A DNA stretch of 64,000 nt, from NCBI GenBank assembly GCA_964016885.1, contig OZ024760.1, positions 23,684,001 through 23,748,000 on the forward strand, in the 5' to 3' direction. The notes under the pieces were generated by a model. That model was not told where the DNA came from. It worked only from the letters and a program-made list of their open reading frames with translations, and searched no databases. The stretch is from Eledone cirrhosa. Taxonomy: Eukaryota. Below, one piece after another: positions 32,019-63,789 of this stretch; within the stretch, counting starts at the first letter, position 1, and every line of letters starts with the position of its first letter. The position numbers and the translations under genes were made by a program.

Positions 32019-32261
32019 TTACCCAGGGAGTGTAACGTAAAGTTACTGTTGGTTCACACAGGTGAGGACTCAATGTTTAGGTTCAAGTCACTAGCGAAGT
32101 GTAGGGCTAGACTGAGTATAATATAGTAATTCACCAGTTCTATACAGATCGAACCTTGAGCTGATCAATAGCGAAACACGCGTTGCCAATCAACAAGTAA
32201 TGAAGGTTTAACCAATGGTCGTTGTATTTTTATTAGTGTTATTATATATATATATATATAC

Positions 32262-32535
32262 AATCCGGGAGCTTCCAACAGCAATGGTTGCATTATTTAA
32301 GGGTATGTCAATATTTATTTATAAAACTTATCTATATTATATTTTACCTGATGAAAGCACACCATAATTTAACTTGGTGTCCTTGAAATATGTATAATCA
32401 AATAAATATGGTTTTATAAATATAGTTTCCATTTGTTAATATCGTATTTTTACTCAAAAATATTTGTTGAGTGCTTTATATCAGTTATAAAAATATTTGC
32501 TTGTTGTATCCCAACAATTTAAATAGAACTTTTAC
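32262..32535 (+). mobile_element. Family-D PLE-type repeat with tail; hammerhead core 32340-32404
   Basis: CTGATGA at 32348, GAAA-TATGTA-TA at 32385; stem I weakened. Confidence 0.75.
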
Positions 32536-33790: not shown

Positions 33791-34579
33791 TGCTAATATA
33801 CCTCCGTAAATTGTTCCGTAATACTGTGAAATAATTCCTTGAAAAATATGATTATCTGAAGCTGGTATTGATCAATACTGTAATTCTTTAAATGTATTAA
33901 AGACCACCCGATCACCAAATAAGGAAATCTTTTCTAATGAATGATTATCGTGTATGAGCAATGTTATAATGATCCCACCATTGGAAATGTACTGCTACTG
34001 CTGTCATGCGCAGACTTCCTATATCATATCCAGAAACACCCATTGACCTGTCTCAATTGAGGACAGAAACGCTCTATCCTCTCACCAACATACATTCTGC
34101 ATCTTCTCTCTCTTAAATCTCCTCGGAATCTGACATCACTTGTTGACCTCTACTCAGGAATCCGCATCTCACTATTCTCTTTTCCTCTCGTTACTCATAC
34201 GCAGAAAATCCATGTGCAGTATGCATATTGATATTATAGGCAAATATATATACATTTAGATATGATACTTCAAATAAAATCGTAATTGACTATATTCACA
34301 GAAATTGAAGAGAAACTCTGTTACACTGTCTTATGTAATCAGTAGAGTAATCCATGATACATTAAAAAACGGCGGTATTATATATAAACTGCATTAGCAG
34401 AAAATTAGAGACGGAAATGGAAACGTTATATAACGATGCAAATATATGAACGTGTATATCAGCGATGTAATAACGGACATACGTGTTGACATTTGAACAT
34501 TTTAACGAAGTGAATCTTGAAATAAGCAATAAAATTATTCATATTTAATCAAGTGTTACGAAATGTTGAACATAAATTA

Positions 34580-34972
34580 TTGGCAGTATCGGTAGCGGAT
34601 CGGACGCCATGCTTTCCAGCATAGTTACGTCCCTTTACGATCTAAGTTCAAATCCCGCCGAGGTTGACTTTACCTTTCATCCTTATGGGGTCGATAAAAT
34701 AAAGTACCAGTAATGCACTGGGTAATTGCTGGCCTTGTGCCTAAAGTAGAAACAATTATTTATTCTATTTAAGGGTGGTGGATTGGCAGTATTGGTAGAG
34801 GGTCGGACGCCATGCTTTCCAGCATAGTTACGTCCCTTTATTATCTGAGTTCAAATCCCGCCGAGGTTGACTTTGCCTTTCATCCTCACGGGGTCGATAA
34901 AATAAAGTACCAGTAATGCACTGGGTAATTGCTGGCCTTGTGCCTAAAGTAGAAACAATTATTTATTCTATT
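34580..34972 (+). mobile_element. Two tandem SINE copies
   Basis: Both end AGAAACAATTATTTATTCTATTTAA. Confidence 0.92.
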
Positions 34973-35418
34973 TAATCCAACTTATTTTACAAATAGGATA
35001 ATAAAATATATTCAGGACGCAGTCCCACAATTCTCCCTTCCTTATATTATGATTGGGTCTAGGCCCAGTGTTAATCAATAGGTATATATATAAAATTTTC
35101 CTCTGAAGAGCGTCATCCCTTTAGAATTCTCTTCTTGGACATGTTATTCACACAGGTATTGAACTCCGACAATATAAACTGAACACCACCATCAATCACA
35201 TCGATATACGAATGACTGCAACAATGATGTCAACAATTATATCCTCCTGACATAACAAAAAAATATACTTACTTAATTATTTAATCAGACAATAAATATA
35301 TCTTGAACTTTAGATAGACAGTCGTACAGATCAATGCCACAATCAATGTACAATCAATTTTTCTTGTAAGACATTTACAGTTTTAAAATCAAGAAAATCA
35401 TAAACACATCTATTTCAA

Positions 35419-35598
35419 ATAATTGTTTCTACTTTAGGCACAAGGCCAGCAATTACCAGTGCATTACTGGTACTTTATTTTATCGACCCCGTAAGGATGA
35501 AAGGCAAAGTCAACCTCGGCGGGATTTGAACTCAGATGGTAAAGGGACGTAACTATGCTGGAAAGCATGGCGTCCGACCCTCTACCGATACTGCCAAA
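35419..35598 (-). mobile_element. SINE copy inverted relative to 34580-34972
   Basis: Near-identical reverse complement. Confidence 0.92.
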
Positions 35599-43920: not shown

Positions 43921-44072
43921 TGGAATTGTATTAGCGAGACAACACTGTCATTAATAATGAGCTGTGAGCCAGTTTAACACGTCCTCCTCCTCTAACAGGT
44001 TTCTACTTCCCCAGACACTTGCAAATTACTCTTCAAATCGCTTGAAATATTAAAGAAAAATTCTGGCTCCAT

Positions 44073-44264
44073 ATAATTGTTTCTACTTTAGGCAGAAGGC
44101 CAGCAATTATCCCAGTGCATTACTGGTACTTTATTTTATCGACCCCCGGTAAGGATGAAGGGCAAAGTTAACCTCGACCGGATTTGAAATCAGATCATAA
44201 AGGAAGGTAACTCCATGCTTCAAAGCATGGCGCCCGACCCTCTACCAATACTGCCAATCCACCG
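44073..44264 (-). mobile_element. Full-length SINE
   Basis: Matches consensus. Confidence 0.9.
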
Positions 44265-44297
44265 TCCATATAACAGAAAGTAAGCCAAATACACACT

Positions 44298-45797: not shown

Positions 45798-46320
45798 TTA
45801 GTCTTAGTCTTAGATTCTTCCGCGCCGTTCGCCGCATCGAGTAGTAAGTACTCGCCAACGGTCACGATCAGCGGCAACCTTTTCGAGAGCGTGCCCGGTG
45901 ATGTTGGCTGCCATGAGTTCCTTACGGAACATTCGTCGCCAGGTGATCCTTGGGCAACCCCGCCTCTCCGTTTGCCGCCAGGCGGAGTCCAGTTCATCGT
46001 TCATGTTTTCGAATGCCGTTCATTTGGCAGACGCAGAATATGGCCAGCCAGACGGCACCGACGCTCCGTGACCACTCTCTGTAGCGTCCACGACTCGGCT
46101 CTCCGCAGGATCTCTTCGTTTCGCACTCGATCGCGCCAGGACACCCAAAGGATCTTTTCCAGGCACCGCTGGTGGAAAGCGTTCAGCCGTCTCTCTATTT
46201 TTGCCGTACTCTTCCAGATCTCGCTCGCATAAAGCACTGTCGGCAGCACGATGCGCTTGTACAGGCGGAGCTTGGTCTTGGTGCTAATAAAATAAGACGA
46301 CCAGACTGGGCACAACCGCT
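45798..46320 (-). mobile_element. 5'-truncated RTE-clade LINE (RT C-terminus, frameshifted)
   Basis: TKLRLYKRIVLPTVLYASEIW...LNAFHQRCLEKIL.VSWRDRVRNEEIL...RLAGHILR...RRGCPRITWRR; (CTAAGA)n tail. Confidence 0.95.
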
Positions 46321-46940
46321 GTAAAACTGCGGCTCTTTTGGTATTGGTTGATCTTTGCTAATCCGACAGTTGATATATATATATATATATATAAACACAC
46401 ACATGACCACACACTCACATGTAGAGACACGTTCATGGAGGTCCATGCACATACACAAACTGTTTAAATAACCACACGCACACAGGCACACATATATATA
46501 TATATTCACACATATATATATAAACACTCACATGACCACACACACATAGACACTCATGTATAGAGATTCATACTCATACACATACACGTTCACATGAACA
46601 CACACATGCATGCACACTGACATGAATGTGTATATGTATGTGTGTTTCTGTATCTGTGTGTAGGTATATGTGTGAGTGTATGTGTACTCACACACATAAA
46701 CTCTCACAGGAACACACATATACTGCCACACACACATAAAGATTCACATTCATATATATATATATACATGAGCACACACATACAGACACACACAGATAGA
46801 GATTCACACTCATATATATATATACATACATGAGCACGCATATACAGACACACACATATAGAGATTCACACTCATATATATATATATATATATACATACA
46901 TGAGCAGACACATACAGACACACAGAGATAGAGATTCACA

Positions 46941-47847: not shown

Positions 47848-48017
47848 TATATTATTATTACTATACGGGGTCGATAAAATAAAGTACCAGTAATGCACAG
47901 GGCCATTGCTGGCCTTCTACCAAAAGGAGAAACAAGTATTACTATATATATATATATAACGAAGGAAATGTGGTAAGGAACAAGGTGAACCATAACGCAC
48001 CAAAGTACTCAATACAT

Positions 48018-48598
48018 ATCATATGTTGATTTAAAACTGCACTATTCACAAGTGTTTTTTAACCTTCATATCATGTCTTCCTATTTTATCTGATGAAAAC
48101 ACAAATGTTATTGCATGATGATATTTGTTTTTGAAATGCGTATAATAAAATACATGGAACTCTTTTAACCATCTTTTGATCTTATATATTATATATATAT
48201 ATATGTATATATATATACATATAATATAAGATCAAAAGATGGTTAAAGGAGTTCCATGTATTTTATTATGCGCATTTCAAAAACAAACGTCATCATGCAA
48301 TAATATTTGTGTTTTCATCAGATAAAATAGGAAGACATGATATGAAGGTTAAAAAACACTTGTGGATAGTGCAGTTTTAAATCAACATATCATATGATAT
48401 CCTGTTTTATCTGATGAAAACACAAATATTATTGCATGATGACGTTTGTTTTTGAAATGCGCATAATAAAATACATGGAACTCCTTTAACCATCTTTTGA
48501 TCTTATATTATGTATACTCCAGTCCTACAAACTGTAGAGTGCTTCTTATCCGATATCTGCATTGCTTTATTGTACTACAATAAAACTCACCTCCTACA
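48018..48598. mobile_element. Three family-A arms (+,-,+), each with a minimal hammerhead (48082-48152 +, 48259-48329 -, 48403-48473 +)
   Basis: TATTTTAT-CTGATGA-AAACACAAATATT..ATATTTGTTTTT-GAAA-TGCGCA-TA-ATAAAATA. Confidence 0.85.
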
Positions 48599-49508: not shown

Positions 49509-49538
49509 ATGTATATATATATATATATATATATACGA

Positions 49539-51864
49539 ACAATTAAGTCAAAGATGTACATCCATATATGTATACTGAAATACTAGTATGTATATGAATA
49601 CACACACGTATACATATGTAGATGTACCAAGTTTTTTTTCACTGATCACTTTACTGTGAGTGGCCAGCTATTCTGTATGTAAACACACAGACAAACCGGT
49701 TTTTAGAGTCAAACTGGTTTTTGAGGAAACACCTTTCCTCTATTCTCCAGAAAGCCAGACAAGGAATATTGAACTAGTTTCGTTGTTGTTACAACTCATC
49801 AGCAATATTTACCTATCTTCCGGCCTCTCTAGAGAATCGTAAAAGCACATATCGCTATATGCTTTTTCTATGAAAATTAGTAGTGGGCAGACCAACTTGC
49901 ATAGAGTGTGAGTAAGTACCGGTTCAACGGAGACGATAAAAACAAATAACGAAACGAAATTAAATTTCGTTTCGTTTGTAACTCACTTTTGTATGACTGA
50001 CGCTCAAACAATTAAGTCAAAGATGTACATCCATATATGTATACTAATTTTCATAGAAAAAGCATATAGCGATATGTGCTTTTACGATTCTCTAGAGAGG
50101 CCGGAAGATAGGTAAATATTGCTGATGAGTTGTAACAACAACGAAACTAGTTCAATATTCCTTGTCTGGCTTTCTGGAGAATAGAGGAAAGGTGTTTCCT
50201 CAAAAACCAGTATGACTCTAAAAACCGGTTTGTCTGTGTGTTTACATACAGAATAGCTGGCCACTCACAGTAAAGTGATCAGTGAAAAAAAACTTGGTAC
50301 ATCTACATATGTATACGTGTGTGTATTCATATACATACTAGTATTTCAGTATACATATATGGATGTACATCTTTGACTTAATTGTTTGAGCGTCAGTCAT
50401 ACAAAAGTGAGTTACAAACGAAACGAAATTTAATTTCGTTTCGTTATTTGTTTTTATCGTCTCCGTTGAACCGGTACTTACTCACACTCTATGCAAGTTG
50501 GTCTGCCCACTACTAATTTTCATAGAAAAAGCATATAGCGATATGTGCTTTTACGATTCTCTAGAGAGGCCGGAAGATAGGTAAATATTGCTGATGAGTT
50601 GTAACAACAACGAAACTAGTTCAATATTCCTTGTCTGGCTTTCTGGAGAATAGAGGAAAGGTGTTTCCTCAAAAACCAGTATGACTCTAAAAACCGGTTT
50701 GTCTGTGTGTTTACATACAGAATAGCTGGCCACTCACAGTAAAGTGATCAGTGAAAAAAAACTTGGTACATCTACATATGTATACGTGTGTGTATTCATA
50801 TACATACTAGTATTTCAGTATACATATATGGATGTACATCTTTGACTTAATTGTTTGAGCGTCAGTCATACAAAAGTGAGTTACAAACGAAACGAAATTT
50901 AATTTCGTTTCGTTATTTGTTTTTATCGTCTCCGTTGAACCGGTACCTACTCACACTCTATGCAAGTTGGTCTGCCCACTACTAATTTTCATAGAAAAAG
51001 CATATAGCGATATGTGCTTTTACGATTCTCTAGAGAGGCCGGAAGATAGGTAAATATTGCTGATGAGTTGTAACAACAACGAAACTAGTTTAATATTCCT
51101 TGTCTGGCTTTCTGGAGAATAGAGGAAAGGTGTTTCCTCAAAAACCAGTATGACTCTAAAAACCGGTTTGTCTGTGTGTTTACATACAGAATAGCTGGCC
51201 ACTCACAGTAAAGTGATCAGTGAAAAAAAACTTGGTACATCTACATATGTATACGTGTGTGTATTCATATACATACTAGTATTTCAGTATACATATATGG
51301 ATGTACATCTTTGACTTAATTGTTTGAGCGTCAGTCATACAAAAGTGAGTTACAAACGAAACGAAATTTAATTTCGTTTCGTTATTTGTTTTTATCGTCT
51401 CCGTTGAACCGGTACCTACTCACACTCTATGCAAGTTGGTCTGCCCACTACTAATTTTCATAGAAAAAGCATATAGCGATATGTGCTTTTACGATTCTCT
51501 AGAGAGGCCGGAAGATAGGTAAATATTGCTGATGAGTTGTAACAACAACGAAACTAGTTCAATATTCCTTGTCTGGCTTTCTGGAGAATAGAGGAAAGGT
51601 GTTTCCTCAAAAACCAGTATGACTCTAAAAACCGGTTTGTCTGTGTGTTTACATACAGAATAGCTGGCCACTCACAGTAAAGTGATCAGTGAAAAAAAAC
51701 TTGGTACATCTACATATGTATACGTGTGTGTATTCATATACATACTAGTATTTCAGTATACATATATGGATGTACATCTTTGACTTAATTGTTTGAGCGT
51801 CAGTCATACAAAAGTGAGTTACAAACGAAACGAAATTTAATTTCGTTTCGTTATTTGTTTTTAT
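49539..51864 (+). mobile_element. Hammerhead-bearing 469-bp tandem array (~3.9 units, 50045-51864) with inverted ~1.08 unit (49539-50044)
   Basis: Units start at 50045, 50514, 50983 and 51452 and differ by few SNPs; 13-bp TSD TATATATATACGA at 49526-49538 and 51862-51874. Confidence 0.95.
50115..50159 (+). ncRNA. Minimal type I hammerhead ribozyme (also at 50584, 51053, 51522 on plus; ~49765-49809 on minus)
   Basis: AATATTG-CTGATGA-GTTG taacaa CAAC-GAAAC-TA-GTT-CAATATT; complete core, palindromic stem III AACTAGTT. Confidence 0.92.
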
Positions 51865-51870
51865 ATATAT

Positions 51871-52262
51871 ACGATATTAAATAAATGGAAACTATATTTA
51901 TAAAACCATATTTATTTCATTATATATATTTCAGGGATATCATATTAACAATATGTTATGCCTTCCTCAGACAAAATACAATATAGACAGTTTTATAGAT
52001 AAATAGATTTGACATACCGTTCAACATCGACTTGTATTTGAAAAAGTCTATAAAACTGTCTATATTGTATTTTGTCTGAGGAAGGCATAACATATTGTTA
52101 ATATGATATCCCTGAAATATATATAATGAAATAAATATGGTTTTATAAATATAGTTTCCATTTATTTAATATCGTAAATATACTCCAAATACTTGTTGAG
52201 TGCTTTTATATCAGTTATAAATATTTACTAGTTGTAACACAACAATTTAAATATAACTTTCC
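51871..52262. mobile_element. Family-D PLE-type head-to-head insertion with hammerheads on both arms (51913-51978 -, 52068-52133 +) and tail on the right arm
   Basis: TATTTTGT-CTGAGGA-AGG..CATATT gtt AATATG..CCT-GAAA-TATATA-TA-ATGAAATA; arms identical over ~125 bp. Confidence 0.85.
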
Positions 52263-52286
52263 ATATATATATATATATATATATAT

Positions 52287-52659
52287 CATCATCATCATTT
52301 TACGTTCGCTTTTCCCTGCTTGCAAGGGTGGGACGGGTCCTATTCACCACACAATCTCTCCACTTGTCATCATCCTTCGTCATCTCCTCCGTGAGCTTCA
52401 GGGATCTGAGGTCTGCTCTCACCACCTCCACCCATGTTTTTCGTGGTCTTCCTCTATTGCGTCTTCCTTCTACTTTCATTTCTTGGCATTTCTTTACACA
52501 CCGGTCATCCTCCATGCGCATCACATGTCCATACCATCTCAGTTTTCCCTCCTGCACACCACAACTTATCCCTCTTATCCCCAGTTTCTCTCTCAACTCA
52601 TCTATGCTTGGTCGTTCACGGATATTCAGATTGCACATCCAACGGAGCATGCTTGCTTC

Positions 52660-52662
<3 letters not shown>
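52287..52662 (-). mobile_element. 5'-truncated RTE-clade LINE
   Basis: MLRWMCN...LRWYGHVMRMEDDRCVKKC...GRRNRGRPRKTW; (GAT)n tail. Confidence 0.95.
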
Positions 52663-52699
<37 letters not shown>

Positions 52700-54044
52700 A
52701 ATAACATTAAGAAAAATGCTGATGTCACATAGATCATTTATTCATAATTATTTTTTCAACGATTCTTTTATGCAATCCATGATGTAACTTATGCATTTGT
52801 TGTTGTTATATGCATGGATTTAAGTAAAATGATAAAAACCGGTTTGAAAAGCGCATATGGTATATATAAAAAGGATCATTATATCATTTACAAAAATTCA
52901 GCAAAACTTTCTCTCTCCGTATTGGTTTAGCAAGACATTTATTATTAGGTTAAATTGTTTTTGTGACTAAAAATCCTGCGTATGCACACACACACATACG
53001 CACACACAGACACGCACACACACGTGCACACACACACACACACACATACACACACACATATATATATATATATATAAGAACCAAGTAGAGGTGTTACATA
53101 TGAGAGTTATCGCTTAACTCAGTTACAAATGTTTCCCAGGCAGCGGGCTGGTGATCTGACATTGGTACACTCATCAGTTTTCTTCGGACATCCTGAATCT
53201 TTTGCACGTATATATATATATATTTATATATATATTAAAATAACAGATTAAAGTTTAAGCAAAGGATCGCTGCTTTCACCCTTAATGGGTCCTTCTGAAA
53301 CTAACAAAAATCAATCTGTGAACGCAGAAGTAAATATTTCGAAAAACGATGCAACCGAAGGAAACCACAGGAAGACGATACTTTGGTTCGTGAAGACGTT
53401 CCCTGAAAATGAACGGAAAAAAGCGAAGATAATACGTCGTTATGTGGTCCGATGAGAACAATTACACACGGTGGAGGTGGTGGTGGTGGTGGTCGTAATT
53501 GTGAAGATGTTGCCTTTGATGTGAATGGTATTGATGGGGTGGACTGAATGGTTAATGGTGAATGCTGGATGGAGGATGGATATGGAATGACCATATCGAT
53601 CAATCAATCAGATTTCAACAATAGCTATTGAACAAGTTCTTCGTTCTCTCGAAGACTTGTTTGGAGTGCCAAGTTATTTACAAATATTTTTTTCTGATTC
53701 AGCTTTCTCTTTTTCTACTGAATACGTTTTTATTTATTGCTTTTTACTTTGTTTTTGTTGTTGTTGATTTCTTGAATTTATTTATTTTTTGTATTTTATA
53801 TATATTTGTTGTATTTTGTGTGGTTTTTGTCTTGCTTGATTTGTCTGTGTGTGTTTTATTCGAGTGGTATTTATGTTTGTTTGATGGTTGGTCACAAGTG
53901 TGTCATTAATAAATAAATAAAAACCCGAGCGACATTAACGTAGATATATTCACTAGCGATGTCCAGCTGTATATTTCTACAAAACAAAGACAACCGCCCC
54001 CTCCAAATACTCAACACATTTTTTCTAAAAAAAAAGCAAATGAC

Positions 54045-54088
<44 letters not shown>

Positions 54089-54880
54089 TAACAATAATGA
54101 TAATAAACCAAATAACATAGAAATGAGTTAGTTTTTCTCCGGTCGATATTTGTAAATGGACACCCGTGTATAGATATAAATCAAGTGACGATACAATAGA
54201 GAGTAGGATGTAGATGTGTGGTGGTGGTGGAGTGTGTGGTGCCTATTGAATGTATACATTTTCAAGATGTATATTCTAGTGTAATCTGACTTTCGACATC
54301 GATACGGATTTCTTTTGGAGGGGGGTGGGGTGATTTGTGTATGTGTATATGTGTAAGTATGCGTGTATATATGTGTGTGTCTTGTGTTGTGTCTGCCAAT
54401 TTGGAGTAATAGAAAAAAATCGTATTATGTAAGAGTAAGGGCGAAAGTAAGAAATCTATGTGTGAAGTTAAATGTATTTCCCATCTTCTATATATATATA
54501 TATGTTTGATTTTAATATATATATATATGTTCAGAAGCGATTGTTTTGGTAAAAAGAGGAGCCTGCAGGAGAAAGCTCTCTACATTCCTAGTTTGTTATT
54601 ACGATGGAGATTCAGTTTAAGATTAACATTAAAAAAGATATTGATGTTACAACAAATCGTTTATTCATGATACATATTTCAACGGTTCTCCCATGCAATC
54701 CAAGATGTAATTCATGTATTTGCAGTCGTTATGCCGGTGGCATATCACAAAATCGAATTTCGTCCGAAGAATCCGTTCCCATAACAACAACAACATATGT
54801 ACCAATTACATTATGATTGCATGGTAGAAGTGTTGAAATAATTATTCTGAATAAACGATTGATGTAACATCAGCATCTTT

Positions 54881-54943
<63 letters not shown>

Positions 54944-55060
54944 GTAGGAAAAGAGTCAGGACCCCGACAGCTGAGCCTCCGGCCGTTTCCACTGCTAGAT
55001 TCTTCTTCTTCTTTCTTCTTCTTCTTCTTCTTCTTCTTCTTCTTCTTCTCATACATTAAG

Positions 55061-55127
<67 letters not shown>

Positions 55128-55261
55128 ATATATATATATATATATATGAAAGGTAACTATAGTAGGTAAAGTCAATTTTTTAAAATTTATTTTGAAACTT
55201 TTTCACTATTTACTAAACCTTGTTTATATATATATATATATATATAGCTATATTTCTGACC

Positions 55262-55327
<66 letters not shown>

Positions 55328-55328
<1 letters not shown>

Positions 55329-55499
55329 GTAGGTCCCGGGTTGAGTCGGGGATAACCACAGTAAGTAAGGTACTCAATACATGGCAGAGTAAATTTTTTT
55401 TATTTTATAGAAGGAGCTTCTACAGGACTAGTACTGTTTCATTCAGATCTGAATGAAACAGTACTAGTCCTGTAGAAGCTCCTTCTATAAAATAAAATA

Positions 55500-55500
<1 letters not shown>
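55328..55500. mobile_element. Family-C insertion: tail plus near-perfect ~100-bp palindrome centred on AGATCT (55445-55450)
   Basis: TTTTATAGAAGGAGCTTCTACAGGACTAGTACTGTTTCATTC-AGATCT-reverse complement; (AT)n flanks. Confidence 0.8.
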
Positions 55501-55556
<56 letters not shown>

Positions 55557-55569
55557 TCTTCAAATCAAT

Positions 55570-55830
55570 CATGGAACTGGTTTCTGTATCGATGCTTGTC
55601 CTGCATCCATGATGTTGTGAAGCGTTGTCGTCTGGTACTTGCCAGCCATGTAACTCACCGCGATGATCCAACTGGGAGCGTGCTCGTCTGGTCTCCGGAT
55701 GCAAAGGGATGAGTTGGCCGGACGGTCCTATTTCATACCACCTTGAAATCAATCATCAAGATTGACTCGGGTGTCAAAGAAAATGATCTACATGCTACAA
55801 ATTTGGACCGAGAACTCTTGTTCTCCAACT
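55570..55830 (+). mobile_element. Decayed RTE-like LINE RT C-terminal fragment
   Basis: Own translation: LYRCLSCIHDVVKRCRLVLASHVTHRDDPTGSVLVWSPDAKG*VGR...IKIDSG...LDREL. Confidence 0.65.
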
Positions 55831-57333: not shown

Positions 57334-57836
<503 letters not shown>

Positions 57837-58896: not shown

Positions 58897-59048
58897 CATA
58901 TATATATATTTATATATATATAAATATATATAAGTTGAAAAAAATGAAAACGAAATTTCATTTCTCACTCTTAGTATGGCACTTACTTAAATGTAAGTAT
59001 GTATGTATACGTACATACATATATGTATACAGACGTACAGTAGCAAGC

Positions 59049-59083
<35 letters not shown>

Positions 59084-59271
59084 ATATATATACATATATA
59101 TACACATATGCATACAGGTACACATACATATATGCACGCATCAGTTTAGCCTACGTTTATTATAACGCCGGCCGCTTTGTTCGTTTGTTTGTTAACAAAG
59201 CGAACAGCCTGAATTTATGCCATACGGTGTTAAGGCAACCACGTCACCTTTTTGTTCAACACTGACACAGG

Positions 59272-59316
59272 AACGATGTACTAGTTTCAAGCTTGTTAGC
59301 TATCATCAGCACCGTT
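59272..59316 (-). ncRNA. Minimal type I hammerhead ribozyme (nine copies; left coordinates 59272, 59774, 60276, 60780, 61286, 61788, 62290, 62794, 63296)
   Basis: Minus: AACGGTG-CTGATGA-T AGCT aaca AGCT T-GAAAC-TA-GTA-CATCGTT; GUA triplet, U-U at base of stem II. Confidence 0.88.
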
Positions 59317-59362
59317 TACCCATCTGCCAGATAGTTGAACGTTCGAAAGTATATACTTTCCT

Positions 59363-59398
59363 TATGAAAATTAACGGCTGAGCAGCCTAATTTGCATA
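59363..59398. promoter_or_regulatory. Octamer-containing dyad in each array unit (candidate promoter or protein-binding site)
   Basis: TATGAAAATTA-ACGGCTGAGCAGCC-TAATTTGCATA; exact ATTTGCAT at 59390-59397; homologous dyad at 50490-50524. Confidence 0.45.
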
Positions 59399-59551
59399 TA
59401 GAGTGAGTTAAATCGGTCAGGCATACCGAAAACGATAAGTTGAAAAAAATGAAAACGAAATTTCATTTCTCACTCTTAGTATGGCACTTACTTAAATGTA
59501 AGTATGTATGTATACGTACATACATATATGTATACAGACGTACAGTAGCAA

Positions 59552-59600
<49 letters not shown>

Positions 59601-60053
59601 TATACACATATGCATACAGGTACACATACATATATGCACGCATCAGTTTAGCCTACGTTTATTATAACGCCGGCCGCTTTGTTCGTTTGTTTGTTAACAA
59701 AGCGAACAGCCTGAATTTATGCCATACGGTGTTAAGGCAACCACGTCACCTTTTTGTTCAACACTGACACAGGAACGATGTACTAGTTTCAAGCTTGTTA
59801 GCTATCATCAGCACCGTTTACCCATCTGCCAGATAGTTGAACGTTCGAAAGTATATACTTTCCTTATGAAAATTAACGGCTGAGCAGCCTAATTTGCATA
59901 TAGAGTGAGTTAAATCGGTCAGGCATACCGAAAACGATAAGTTGAAAAAAATGAAAACGAAATTTCATTTCTCACTCTTAGTATGGCACTTACTTAAATG
60001 TAAGTATGTATGTATACGTACATACATATATGTATACAGACGTACAGTAGCAA

Positions 60054-60102
<49 letters not shown>

Positions 60103-60555
60103 TATACACATATGCATACAGGTACACATACATATATGCACGCATCAGTTTAGCCTACGTTTATTATAACGCCGGCCGCTTTGTTCGTTTGTTTGTTAAC
60201 AAAGCGAACAGCCTGAATTTATGCCATACGGTGTTAAGGCAACCACGTCACCTTTTTGTTCAACACTGACACAGGAACGATGTACTAGTTTCAAGCTTGT
60301 TAGCTATCATCAGCACCGTTTACCCATCTGCCAGATAGTTGAACGTTCGAAAGTATATACTTTCCTTATGAAAATTAACGGCTGAGCAGCCTAATTTGCA
60401 TATAGAGTGAGTTAAATCGGTCAGGCATACCGAAAACGATAAGTTGAAAAAAATGAAAACGAAATTTCATTTCTCACTCTTAGTATGGCACTTACTTAAA
60501 TGTAAGTATGTATGTATACGTACATACATATATGTATACAGACGTACAGTAGCAA

Positions 60556-60606
<51 letters not shown>

Positions 60607-61059
60607 TATACACATATGCATACAGGTACACATACATATATGCACGCATCAGTTTAGCCTACGTTTATTATAACGCCGGCCGCTTTGTTCGTTTGTTTGT
60701 TAACAAAGCGAACAGCCTGAATTTATGCCATACGGTGTTAAGGCAACCACGTCACCTTTTTGTTCAACACTGACACAGGAACGATGTACTAGTTTCAAGC
60801 TTGTTAGCTATCATCAGCACCGTTTACCCATCTGCCAGATAGTTGAACGTTCGAAAGTATATACTTTCCTTATGAAAATTAACGGCTGAGCAGCCTAATT
60901 TGCATATAGAGTGAGTTAAATCGGTCAGGCATACCGAAAACGATAAGTTGAAAAAAATGAAAACGAAATTTCATTTCTCACTCTTAGTATGGCACTTACT
61001 TAAATGTAAGTATGTATGTATACGTACATACATATATGTATACAGACGTACAGTAGCAA

Positions 61060-61112
<53 letters not shown>

Positions 61113-61565
61113 TATACACATATGCATACAGGTACACATACATATATGCACGCATCAGTTTAGCCTACGTTTATTATAACGCCGGCCGCTTTGTTCGTTT
61201 GTTTGTTAACAAAGCGAACAGCCTGAATTTATGCCATACGGTGTTAAGGCAACCACGTCACCTTTTTGTTCAACACTGACACAGGAACGATGTACTAGTT
61301 TCAAGCTTGTTAGCTATCATCAGCACCGTTTACCCATCTGCCAGATAGTTGAACGTTCGAAAGTATATACTTTCCTTATGAAAATTAACGGCTGAGCAGC
61401 CTAATTTGCATATAGAGTGAGTTAAATCGGTCAGGCATACCGAAAACGACAAGTTGAAAAAAATGAAAACGAAATTTCATTTCTCACTCTTAGTATGGCA
61501 CTTACTTAAATGTAAGTATGTATGTATACGTACATACATATATGTATACAGACGTACAGTAGCAA

Positions 61566-61614
<49 letters not shown>

Positions 61615-62067
61615 TATACACATATGCATACAGGTACACATACATATATGCACGCATCAGTTTAGCCTACGTTTATTATAACGCCGGCCGCTTTGTTCGT
61701 TTGTTTGTTAACAAAGCGAACAGCCTGAATTTATGCCATACGGTGTTAAGGCAACCACGTCACCTTTTTGTTCAACACTGACACAGGAACGATGTACTAG
61801 TTTCAAGCTTGTTAGCTATCATCAGCACCGTTTACCCATCTGCCAGATAGTTGAACGTTCGAAAGTATATACTTTCCTTATGAAAATTAACGGCTGAGCA
61901 GCCTAATTTGCATATAGAGTGAGTTAAATCGGTCAGGCATACCGAAAACGATAAGTTGAAAAAAATGAAAACGAAATTTCATTTCTCACTCTTAGTATGG
62001 CACTTACTTAAATGTAAGTATGTATGTATACGTACATACATATATGTATACAGACGTACAGTAGCAA

Positions 62068-62116
<49 letters not shown>

Positions 62117-62569
62117 TATACACATATGCATACAGGTACACATACATATATGCACGCATCAGTTTAGCCTACGTTTATTATAACGCCGGCCGCTTTGTTC
62201 GTTTGTTTGTTAACAAAGCGAACAGCCTGAATTTATGCCATACGGTGTTAAGGCAACCACGTCACCTTTTTGTTCAACACTGACACAGGAACGATGTACT
62301 AGTTTCAAGCTTGTTAGCTATCATCAGCACCGTTTACCCATCTGCCAGATAGTTGAACGTTCGAAAGTATATACTTTCCTTATGAAAATTAACGGCTGAG
62401 CAGCCTAATTTGCATATAGAGTGAGTTAAATCGGTCAGGCATACCGAAAACGATAAGTTGAAAAAAATGAAAACGAAATTTCATTTCTCACTCTTAGTAT
62501 GGCACTTACTTAAATGTAAGTATGTATGTATACGTACATACATATATGTATACAGACGTACAGTAGCAA

Positions 62570-62620
<51 letters not shown>

Positions 62621-63073
62621 TATACACATATGCATACAGGTACACATACATATATGCACGCATCAGTTTAGCCTACGTTTATTATAACGCCGGCCGCTTT
62701 GTTCGTTTGTTTGTTAACAAAGCGAACAGCCTGAATTTATGCCATACGGTGTTAAGGCAACCACGTCACCTTTTTGTTCAACACTGACACAGGAACGATG
62801 TACTAGTTTCAAGCTTGTTAGCTATCATCAGCACCGTTTACCCATCTGCCAGATAGTTGAACGTTCGAAAGTATATACTTTCCTTATGAAAATTAACGGC
62901 TGAGCAGCCTAATTTGCATATAGAGTGAGTTAAATCGGTCAGGCATACCGAAAACGATAAGTTGAAAAAAATGAAAACGAAATTTCATTTCTCACTCTTA
63001 GTATGGCACTTACTTAAATGTAAGTATGTATGTATACGTACATACATATATGTATACAGACGTACAGTAGCAA

Positions 63074-63122
<49 letters not shown>

Positions 63123-63531
63123 TATACACATATGCATACAGGTACACATACATATATGCACGCATCAGTTTAGCCTACGTTTATTATAACGCCGGCCGCT
63201 TTGTTCGTTTGTTTGTTAACAAAGCGAACAGCCTGAATTTATGCCATACGGTGTTAAGGCAACCACGTCACCTTTTTGTTCAACACTGACACAGGAACGA
63301 TGTACTAGTTTCAAGCTTGTTAGCTATCATCAGCACCGTTTACCCATCTGCCAGATAGTTGAACGTTCGAAAGTATATACTTTCCTTATGAAAATTATAA
63401 CACCGTATGGCATAAATTCAGGCTGTTCGCTTTGTTAACAAACAAACGAACAAAGCGGCCGGCGTTATAATAAACGTAGGCTAAACTGATGCGTGCATAT
63501 ATGTATGTGTACCTGTATGCATATGTGTATA

Positions 63532-63584
<53 letters not shown>

Positions 63585-63789
63585 TTGCTACTGTACGTCT
63601 GTATACATATATGTATGTACGTATACATACATACTTACATTTAAATATATATATATATCTATATATTATATTTATACATTTATATATACATATATATATA
63701 TATTTATATATGTATATATATATAATATATATATAATATATATATATATATAGATAGATAGAGAGAGAGGGGGGTATTGAAACATAGCC

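Follow-up and report, generated by a model that had tools for sequence, protein, structure and literature searches.

A probable non-LTR retrozyme array with Penelope-like insertion anatomy in the genome of Eledone cirrhosa

Anatomy and outer ends of the array

The window analysed here is a 64-kb stretch of the Eledone cirrhosa genome. Between 49538 and 51864 it contains a composite of 469-bp units, array A, which represents the recent insertion of a retroelement that is non-autonomous and hammerhead-bearing. The composite begins with an inverted 5' arm on the minus strand (49538-50045; 508 bp, 1.08 units). The outer end of the arm lies at unit phase 344, a conserved position that we call site 1, and its inner end at phase 306-310. 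At 50042-50045 the arm meets the direct tandem array head-to-head. This junction shows a 4-nt microhomology and is the 5' start of the array, homologous to the start of a second array in the window, array B. From here the non-coding direct part continues on the plus strand (50042-51864; 1823 bp, 3.89 x 469 bp), with units arranged head-to-tail and without a central region. It closes with a 71-nt tail (51794-51864, plus strand), which spans the distance between site 1 and site 2, the conserved 3' end. A hairpin with a 13-bp stem (51824-51852) sits in the tail, 12 nt before the 3' end. GC content is 0.34 over 50001-52000, and the array has neither poly(A) nor a simple-repeat tail of its own.

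The longest ATG-initiated open reading frames (ORFs) of array A measure 19 aa in the sense and 23 aa in the antisense direction. With no RT/GIY-YIG ORF in its unit, array A is not an autonomous Penelope-like element (PLE). An autonomous PLE was also not found in the window, where none of 57 ORFs scanned with Pfam matches an RT or GIY-YIG family (58 passed the length and complexity filter, and one duplicate ORF of the array B unit was dropped). Repeats were taken from a masked self-BLAST of the window, as the unmasked run was dominated by microsatellites; tandem repeats were read from 150 of the 234 rows of a scan of the window. A promoter scan with a bacterial model, which does not suit this genome, only re-found the tail hairpin; no promoter was identified. 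A motif and a hairpin at 50478-50530, positioned just ahead of the array 5' start and spanning it, recur in the matching part of array B and are a candidate promoter or protein-binding element.

The first-pass annotation had counted about five units, one of them inverted, which agrees with the ~4.96 units that we find between the outer ends, arm included. Over this ~2.3 kb there are three variable positions. The arm carries a private variant, and its closest match is 50348-50855 (one mismatch, as opposed to 3 and 2 in later registers). At phase 436 the arm and unit 1 read T, and units 2 and 3 read C. This order, T/T/C/C, would follow if units 1-2 of a donor RNA with slight heterogeneity had served as the template of the arm.

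The outer ends are marked by the 13-mer TATATATATACGA, which is indeed present on the plus strand at both 49526-49538 and 51862-51874, as annotated; identity stops there in both directions. The left copy closes a (TA)n tract and shares its last base with the unit. The right copy shares its first 3 bases with the unit, and its last 3 are the terminus of a family-D element. Because these junction bases also match the unit, the target-site duplication (TSD) may measure anything from 9 to 13 bp, and the annotated length of 13 bp is its upper limit. Ten of the 13 bases form a (TA)5 run, a string found 2005 times per strand in the window, so that only the CG is informative (~2 informative bases). 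Elsewhere in the window CG comes next at 8 of 518 (TA)5 run ends, or ~1.5% by chance, and CGA at 1 of 518, which is the family-D terminus at 23842 on the minus strand. The only other copy of the 13-mer in the window, at ~23839 on the minus strand, is likewise the terminus of another family-D element. The right-hand CGA is therefore a normal D terminus, and the left-hand CGA is best read as a duplication. The empty-site junction predicted for array A resembles the natural D terminus present at 23842 (minus). We rejected the alternative that the left CG is the remnant of a 4-nt deletion in unit sequence, which would need an additional event.

Taken together, both outer ends of array A were probably made in one target-primed event. 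The annotation had gone further, proposing a single insertion without unequal crossover next to an older family-D element. The D element does adjoin the right copy, and it is older by nesting order only; its arm and sense copy are identical at 135 of 136 positions. The proposal of a single event fares well for the outer ends and less so for the internal copy number. Since the TSD fixes two ends and is blind to the number of units between them, later gain or loss of units is possible.

A related array and the hammerhead motifs

Array B lies on the minus strand at 58921-63653, measured from TSD candidate to TSD candidate. It belongs to a related family (~74% identity to A over aligned columns), and the two arrays are separate insertions. 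The full array occupies 58930-63644. Its direct part (58930-63397, sense on minus) comprises ~8.9 units of 502-506 bp with nine hammerheads, and its inverted arm occupies 63398-63644. The head-to-head junction is without clean microhomology. The 12-bp TSD candidate (58921-58932 and 63642-63653) is weak when taken alone, because its 12-mer occurs 55 times in the window. The (TA)n tracts of units 2-9 are 40, 40, 42, 44, 40, 40, 42 and 40 long, and that of the arm is 44, a succession in which slippage or a block of four units may perhaps be seen. Elsewhere in the 64-kb window, neither array was found to have a relative.

These tract lengths bear on the possibility that a short insertion, consisting of the arm and about two units, came first and was then enlarged locally by unequal crossover or slippage. 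Their hint of a 4-unit block would fit such growth, as would the C variant common to units 2 and 3 of array A and the blindness of the TSD to internal copy number; a 2026 preprint also favours this route (10.64898/2026.07.22.740005). However, the arm by itself exceeds one unit, therefore the template was already multimeric or circular, and the very low divergence leaves little time for growth. We consider this account improbable. Local growth can supplement the explanation that we prefer and does not replace it.

A type I hammerhead motif is present in every 469-bp unit of array A, namely in the arm (49752-49824, minus) and in four consecutive direct units on the plus strand (50100-50172, 50569-50641, 51038-51110 and 51507-51579). 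In unit 1 the cut is predicted between 50152 and 50153. Unit 3 has a private C>T change at 51091, the first base past the cut, where a G-U pair is kept. The Rfam model HH9 detects all five array A copies, four of them at E=2.8e-7 and the remaining one at 6.3e-6, with a score of 37.7 bits that is under the gathering cut-off of 52 bits; at gathering level, Rfam gives no match in the whole window. MicroRNA matches at the E-value level were discarded as (TA)n or palindrome hairpins that score far under their cut-offs.

Comparison of A with B, which are two sequences, leaves the hammerhead core unchanged and reveals six pairs changed on both sides, with 33 of 34 cells paired. Slid controls reached 35-53%, and 9 of 500 shuffles attained the observed level. 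A covariance model built from these two sequences recovers only its 14 source hammerheads of A and B, and its scan of the window found nothing beyond them below E=0.09. Helix III of the array A hammerhead is 2 bp long and lies inside a palindromic 8-mer; this hammerhead form has been reported to cleave as a dimer (PMC4209133). For monomers from cut to cut, the folding z-score of A is -11.0 on the hammerhead strand and -5.4 on the opposite one; for B the two values are -10.5 and -6.2. Isolated hammerheads do not fold significantly (z of -1.9, -0.6 and -0.8), and in a co-fold of two of them the intermolecular helix is merely 3.4 kcal/mol better than two monomers. Self-cleavage of the array A hammerhead would be compatible with the predicted structure. 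Outside families A-D, the window contains an isolated hammerhead-like core with a long helix II at 11856 (11841-11905).

Breakpoints in four families of elements

Two further families accompany the arrays, with hammerhead-like cores that in both cases were called by motif scan only. Family D has three copies with such a core, at 23653-23841, 32260-32533 and 51872-52262. The last of these, which flanks array A on the right, is a head-to-head palindrome with cores at 51970 (minus) and 52076 (plus). Its arm ends at D site 1 and its sense copy ~85 nt further, at D site 2. It is 82-84% identical to the other D copies and differs from them in its 5' part; the two arm-less copies have one common 5' end. 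Family D is thus a hammerhead-core-bearing head-to-head element of the array A design. Family C copies are short, lie in (TA)n and mostly carry a core (11610-11729, 23192-23343, 48015-48597 and 57405-57736). Four C elements are head-to-head and terminate at site 1 on one side and at site 2 on the opposite side. In the one at 48214-48597, arm and sense copy have common variants that are absent from other copies. Both families use two alternative 3' ends, ~85-95 nt apart.

Other repeats are found in the vicinity. Related elements in (TA)n occupy 55327-55503, with a perfect 78-bp palindrome (55409-55486), and 23454-23593, with a hammerhead-like core at 23548. An old palindrome at 54634-54880 has arms that are ~70% identical, and a related single arm is near (52698-52809). 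An inverted-repeat scan of 52600-55600 yielded nothing but (TA)n noise. Two ORF fragments, at 46004-46357 (minus) and 52303-52662 (minus), read like what we take to be C-terminal regions of LINE RTs. The former has a sub-threshold DUF6451 match, and the latter lies directly past family D. A dispersed, SINE-like repeat of ~200 bp is abundant (6204-6401, 13297-15130, 16750-17363, 34579-35597, 44071-44279 and others), often in short tandems, and its copies are 80-89% identical.

Breakpoints of A and B were taken from a pairwise alignment of their 3' halves, because MAFFT of whole units misaligned at the long (TA)n of B. Three of the four breakpoints are homologous between the arrays, and none coincides with the predicted cut, at index 111 in A and 95 in B. 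Site 2, the 3' end of the direct array, falls in the identical alignment column. The array 5' starts agree to within the 4-nt microhomology, and the outer arm ends at site 1 to ~3 columns, in an indel-rich stretch. The inner arm ends differ, with unit index 307 in A and 142 in B. A rough estimate of the chance of the three coincidences is 1/16 x 5/469 x 7/469, or ~1e-5, where the first factor stands for the 16 TAT sites per unit. Because the outer ends are fixed and the inner ends variable, we take the outer ends to be where synthesis began. Sites 1 and 2 are 71 nt apart in A and 57 nt in B.

The same pairing of ends extends to all four families. Sites could be assigned in seven head-to-head insertions (A, B, D at 51872, and C at 11610, 23192, 48214 and 57405) but not in the palindromes 54634-54880 and 55409-55486, which were left out. 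All seven combine an end at site 1 with an opposite end at site 2, an outcome expected with a frequency of 1/128 under independent even choice. The tail is one-sided in all seven and measures 57-85 nt. All seven sit in (TA)n, a sequence in which the window as a whole abounds. As best TSD candidates we find 13 bp in A, 12 bp in B and 11 bp in the C element at 48214 (weak); at set boundaries, three C elements have none and D has only (TA)5. Target ends are complementary to the RNA over 1-3 nt at site 1 and site 2. A consensus fold of the site 2 region is weak: of 19 pairs, two are changed on both sides. In all four families the 5' end precedes the hammerhead core by 64-87 nt. The 5' start of the arrays falls within a hairpin that A and B both conserve, in its 3' arm, with the 5' arm further upstream.

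Twin priming produces 5' inversions of L1 in which an inverted 5' segment, microhomology at the junction and a TSD around the whole are found. Array A has all three of these features and differs in that both priming sites are fixed and internal, poly(A) is lacking, and arm and direct copy overlap. LINE-type twin priming, or alternatively fold-back self-priming of the first cDNA, would make the arm without a second fixed site. The 4-nt junction microhomology and the best match of the arm to the adjacent 50348-50855 speak for such an origin, LINE-like fragments are present in the vicinity, and self-priming has been proposed for inverted junctions of PLEs (PMC3846280). However, fold-back predicts a variable outer end, whereas here the outer ends are fixed and the inner ends vary; trimming of the product at site 1 by a nuclease would rescue it. 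The junction of array B, without clean microhomology, and the lack of a poly(A) or simple-repeat tail also argue against this origin, which we regard as very unlikely.

An element that moves at the DNA level, or a fold-back artefact of sequencing or assembly, appears less probable still, to the point of being barely tenable. Helitrons form tandems, and their hallmarks are 5'-TC and 3'-CTRR ends and no TSD. The hairpin 12 nt before the 3' end of array A would suit a Helitron-like element, but neither terminal motif is present and there is a TSD. Nor are the outer ends inverted repeats, as they would be in a MITE/TIR-like element (15 of 40 positions match), and the bias of the structure to one RNA strand and the covariation of the hammerhead speak against any DNA-level element. 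As for an artefact, it would not keep to family-specific sites in seven elements. It is further rendered unlikely by the private variant of the arm and by the recurrence of the design in array B and five smaller elements. The annotation's argument against a read fold-back is borne out: the family-conserved arm end adjoins unique flank.

Template, mechanism and known relatives

A hammerhead in each unit, an RNA structure specific to one strand, fixed breakpoints and a TSD in (TA)n are all directly visible in the sequence. On these features array A is, with high confidence, a non-LTR retrozyme with Penelope-like insertion anatomy. Retrozymes have been defined, and a circle model proposed for them, in earlier work (PMC7229834; PMC7761336; PMC4209133). 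Like array A, the non-LTR retrozymes of animals consist of non-coding tandem units that each bear a type I hammerhead, with a GC content of ~35% (PMC7229834; PMC7761336), a weak palindromic helix III, a compact monomer fold and a TSD of >4 bp. The 469-bp unit is just over the 150-450 bp given in PMC7229834 and within the 51-972 bp of a recent preprint (10.64898/2026.07.22.740005). The preprint connects retrozymes with pLTRs and suggests that they are amplified locally; it reports cleavage in 1 of 9 dimers tested. An inverted 5' arm, a tail and fixed breakpoints, as present in array A, are not described for animal retrozyme arrays in the covered text of these sources. Our literature search found no retrozyme array that combines the three; figures, supplements, the 2005-2006 PLE reviews and most subscription papers lay outside it, and absence is not established.

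The insertion anatomy has its closest counterparts among EN+ PLEs with hammerheads (Penelope/Poseidon, Neptune, Nematis and Hydra; PMC3846280, PMC8557442, PMC11167929). These have in common with array A a partial tandem with an adjacent inverted, 5'-truncated copy, a one-sided tail, if of another length, a short TSD, an AT-rich or microsatellite target and a hammerhead in the repeat. Direct pLTRs and an inverted pLTR flanked by TSDs of 8-10 bp have been described, including one inverted pLTR with a 31-bp tail, as has mobilisation in trans via pLTRs alone (PMC3846280). An equal anatomy of tandem, inversion and tail has been reported for PLE clades, with (TA)n targeting noted, and the way in which PLEs make these structures is described as undefined (PMC8557442). 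Array A differs from the EN+ hammerhead PLEs in that it lacks an RT/GIY-YIG ORF and in that the tails measure 57-85 nt, not 30-40 bp; moreover, arrays A and B consist of 4-9 short units, in contrast to ORF-sized tandems. MRC1 and other non-autonomous Chlamys PLEs are a further parallel, as non-autonomous PLE derivatives that are often multicopy and head-to-tail (PMC8557442, PMC9940879). Multicopy head-to-tail insertions are given by MRC1 itself (PMC8557442), the activity of which has been confirmed (PMC9940879). Most Chlamys PLEs have no hammerhead and target (CA)n or (C)n, whereas array A has a hammerhead and lies in (TA)n. In vitro, a PLE protein in purified form has been shown to cut the two strands and to extend each of them, with two internal RNA start sites bounding the tail and uncut RNA as the main template (PMC11167929).

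We propose that array A arose in one PLE-driven target-primed event with two fixed RNA priming sites on a linear, uncut, multimeric template, a mechanism that we hold with moderate confidence as a whole. A Penelope-like RT/GIY-YIG protein would act in trans to mobilise the element. Transcription of the donor array would begin at a fixed position, ~110 nt before the hammerhead cut site, and the resulting RNA would serve uncut, as a multimer. The endonuclease would nick both strands of a (TA)n target ~12-13 nt apart. Site 2 of a downstream unit may then offer 3 nt of pairing to the bottom-strand end, the extension of which back to the RNA 5' end would yield 3.89 units. The top-strand end would prime 71 nt further upstream, at site 1, and give a shorter cDNA of variable length, the arm. 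Joining of the two cDNA ends via microhomology would leave the head-to-head inversion, the one-sided tail and the TSD.

A linear template is supported by the common 5' start of A and B, by the distance of 64-87 nt between 5' end and core in four families, two arm-less D copies among them, and by the T/T/C/C order at phase 436. Its main rival keeps the same element and enzyme and takes as template a circular monomer, formed by hammerhead cleavage and ligation. Reverse transcription would start at site 2, run for several rounds and stop preferentially at the conserved hairpin or at a second bound protein. This route is the one published for animal retrozymes (PMC7229834; PMC7761336; PMC4209133). 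It would account for array growth, which a linear template cannot by itself provide, and it suits the near-identical units (3 variable sites in 2.3 kb), the compact monomers with ends closed by stem I and the position of the array 5' start inside a conserved hairpin that could stall RT. Yet drop-off should scatter, and A and B start at one position; it is the arm ends that are scattered, and the arm of A reads through the array start position. The T,T,C,C variant would require an extra event, either nascent-cDNA copying or later conversion. Monomeric C and D copies, too, have fixed 5' ends in the same relative place. We judge the circular template to be unlikely, if clearly the strongest of the alternatives.

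The linear template has weak points of its own. The fixed 5' start of arrays is drawn from two arrays and, because it lies within a conserved hairpin, it may mark a place where RT stops or is blocked on an RNA that is longer or circular. Up to nine consecutive dimer-competent hammerheads would have to remain uncut. The tails of 57-85 nt are longer than the 30-40 bp reported for PLEs. In vitro, the PLE protein shows no strand difference in start site in the text covered, so the pairing of site 1 with site 2 is not seen in that work (PMC11167929). That arrays generally move as uncut linear multimers and not via circular RNAs, with a Penelope protein priming the strands at two fixed sites of one RNA structure, is accordingly a tentative proposition, quite possible without being the expected outcome. 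If true, the TSD, the inverted arm and the one-sided tail would all follow from a single rule, with hammerhead and circles reduced to a side product of mobilisation.

Elements of this kind are already known, and it is the fixed-breakpoint pattern that bears directly on how such arrays form. Two routes to retrozyme arrays compete at present, rolling-circle copying (PMC7229834; PMC7761336) and local amplification (10.64898/2026.07.22.740005). Here, two young arrays of related families have PLE-type ends, and their breakpoints are fixed, homologous and set apart from the ribozyme cut site. Their insertion anatomy, and not co-occurrence, links retrozyme arrays to PLE machinery. Palindromes of this type in (TA)n-rich genomes can pass for MITEs, microRNA hairpins or assembly errors, which calls for caution in their annotation. 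With this breakpoint pattern, the mechanism by which such arrays form becomes a question that can be tested, with counts that are fit for a whole-genome survey.
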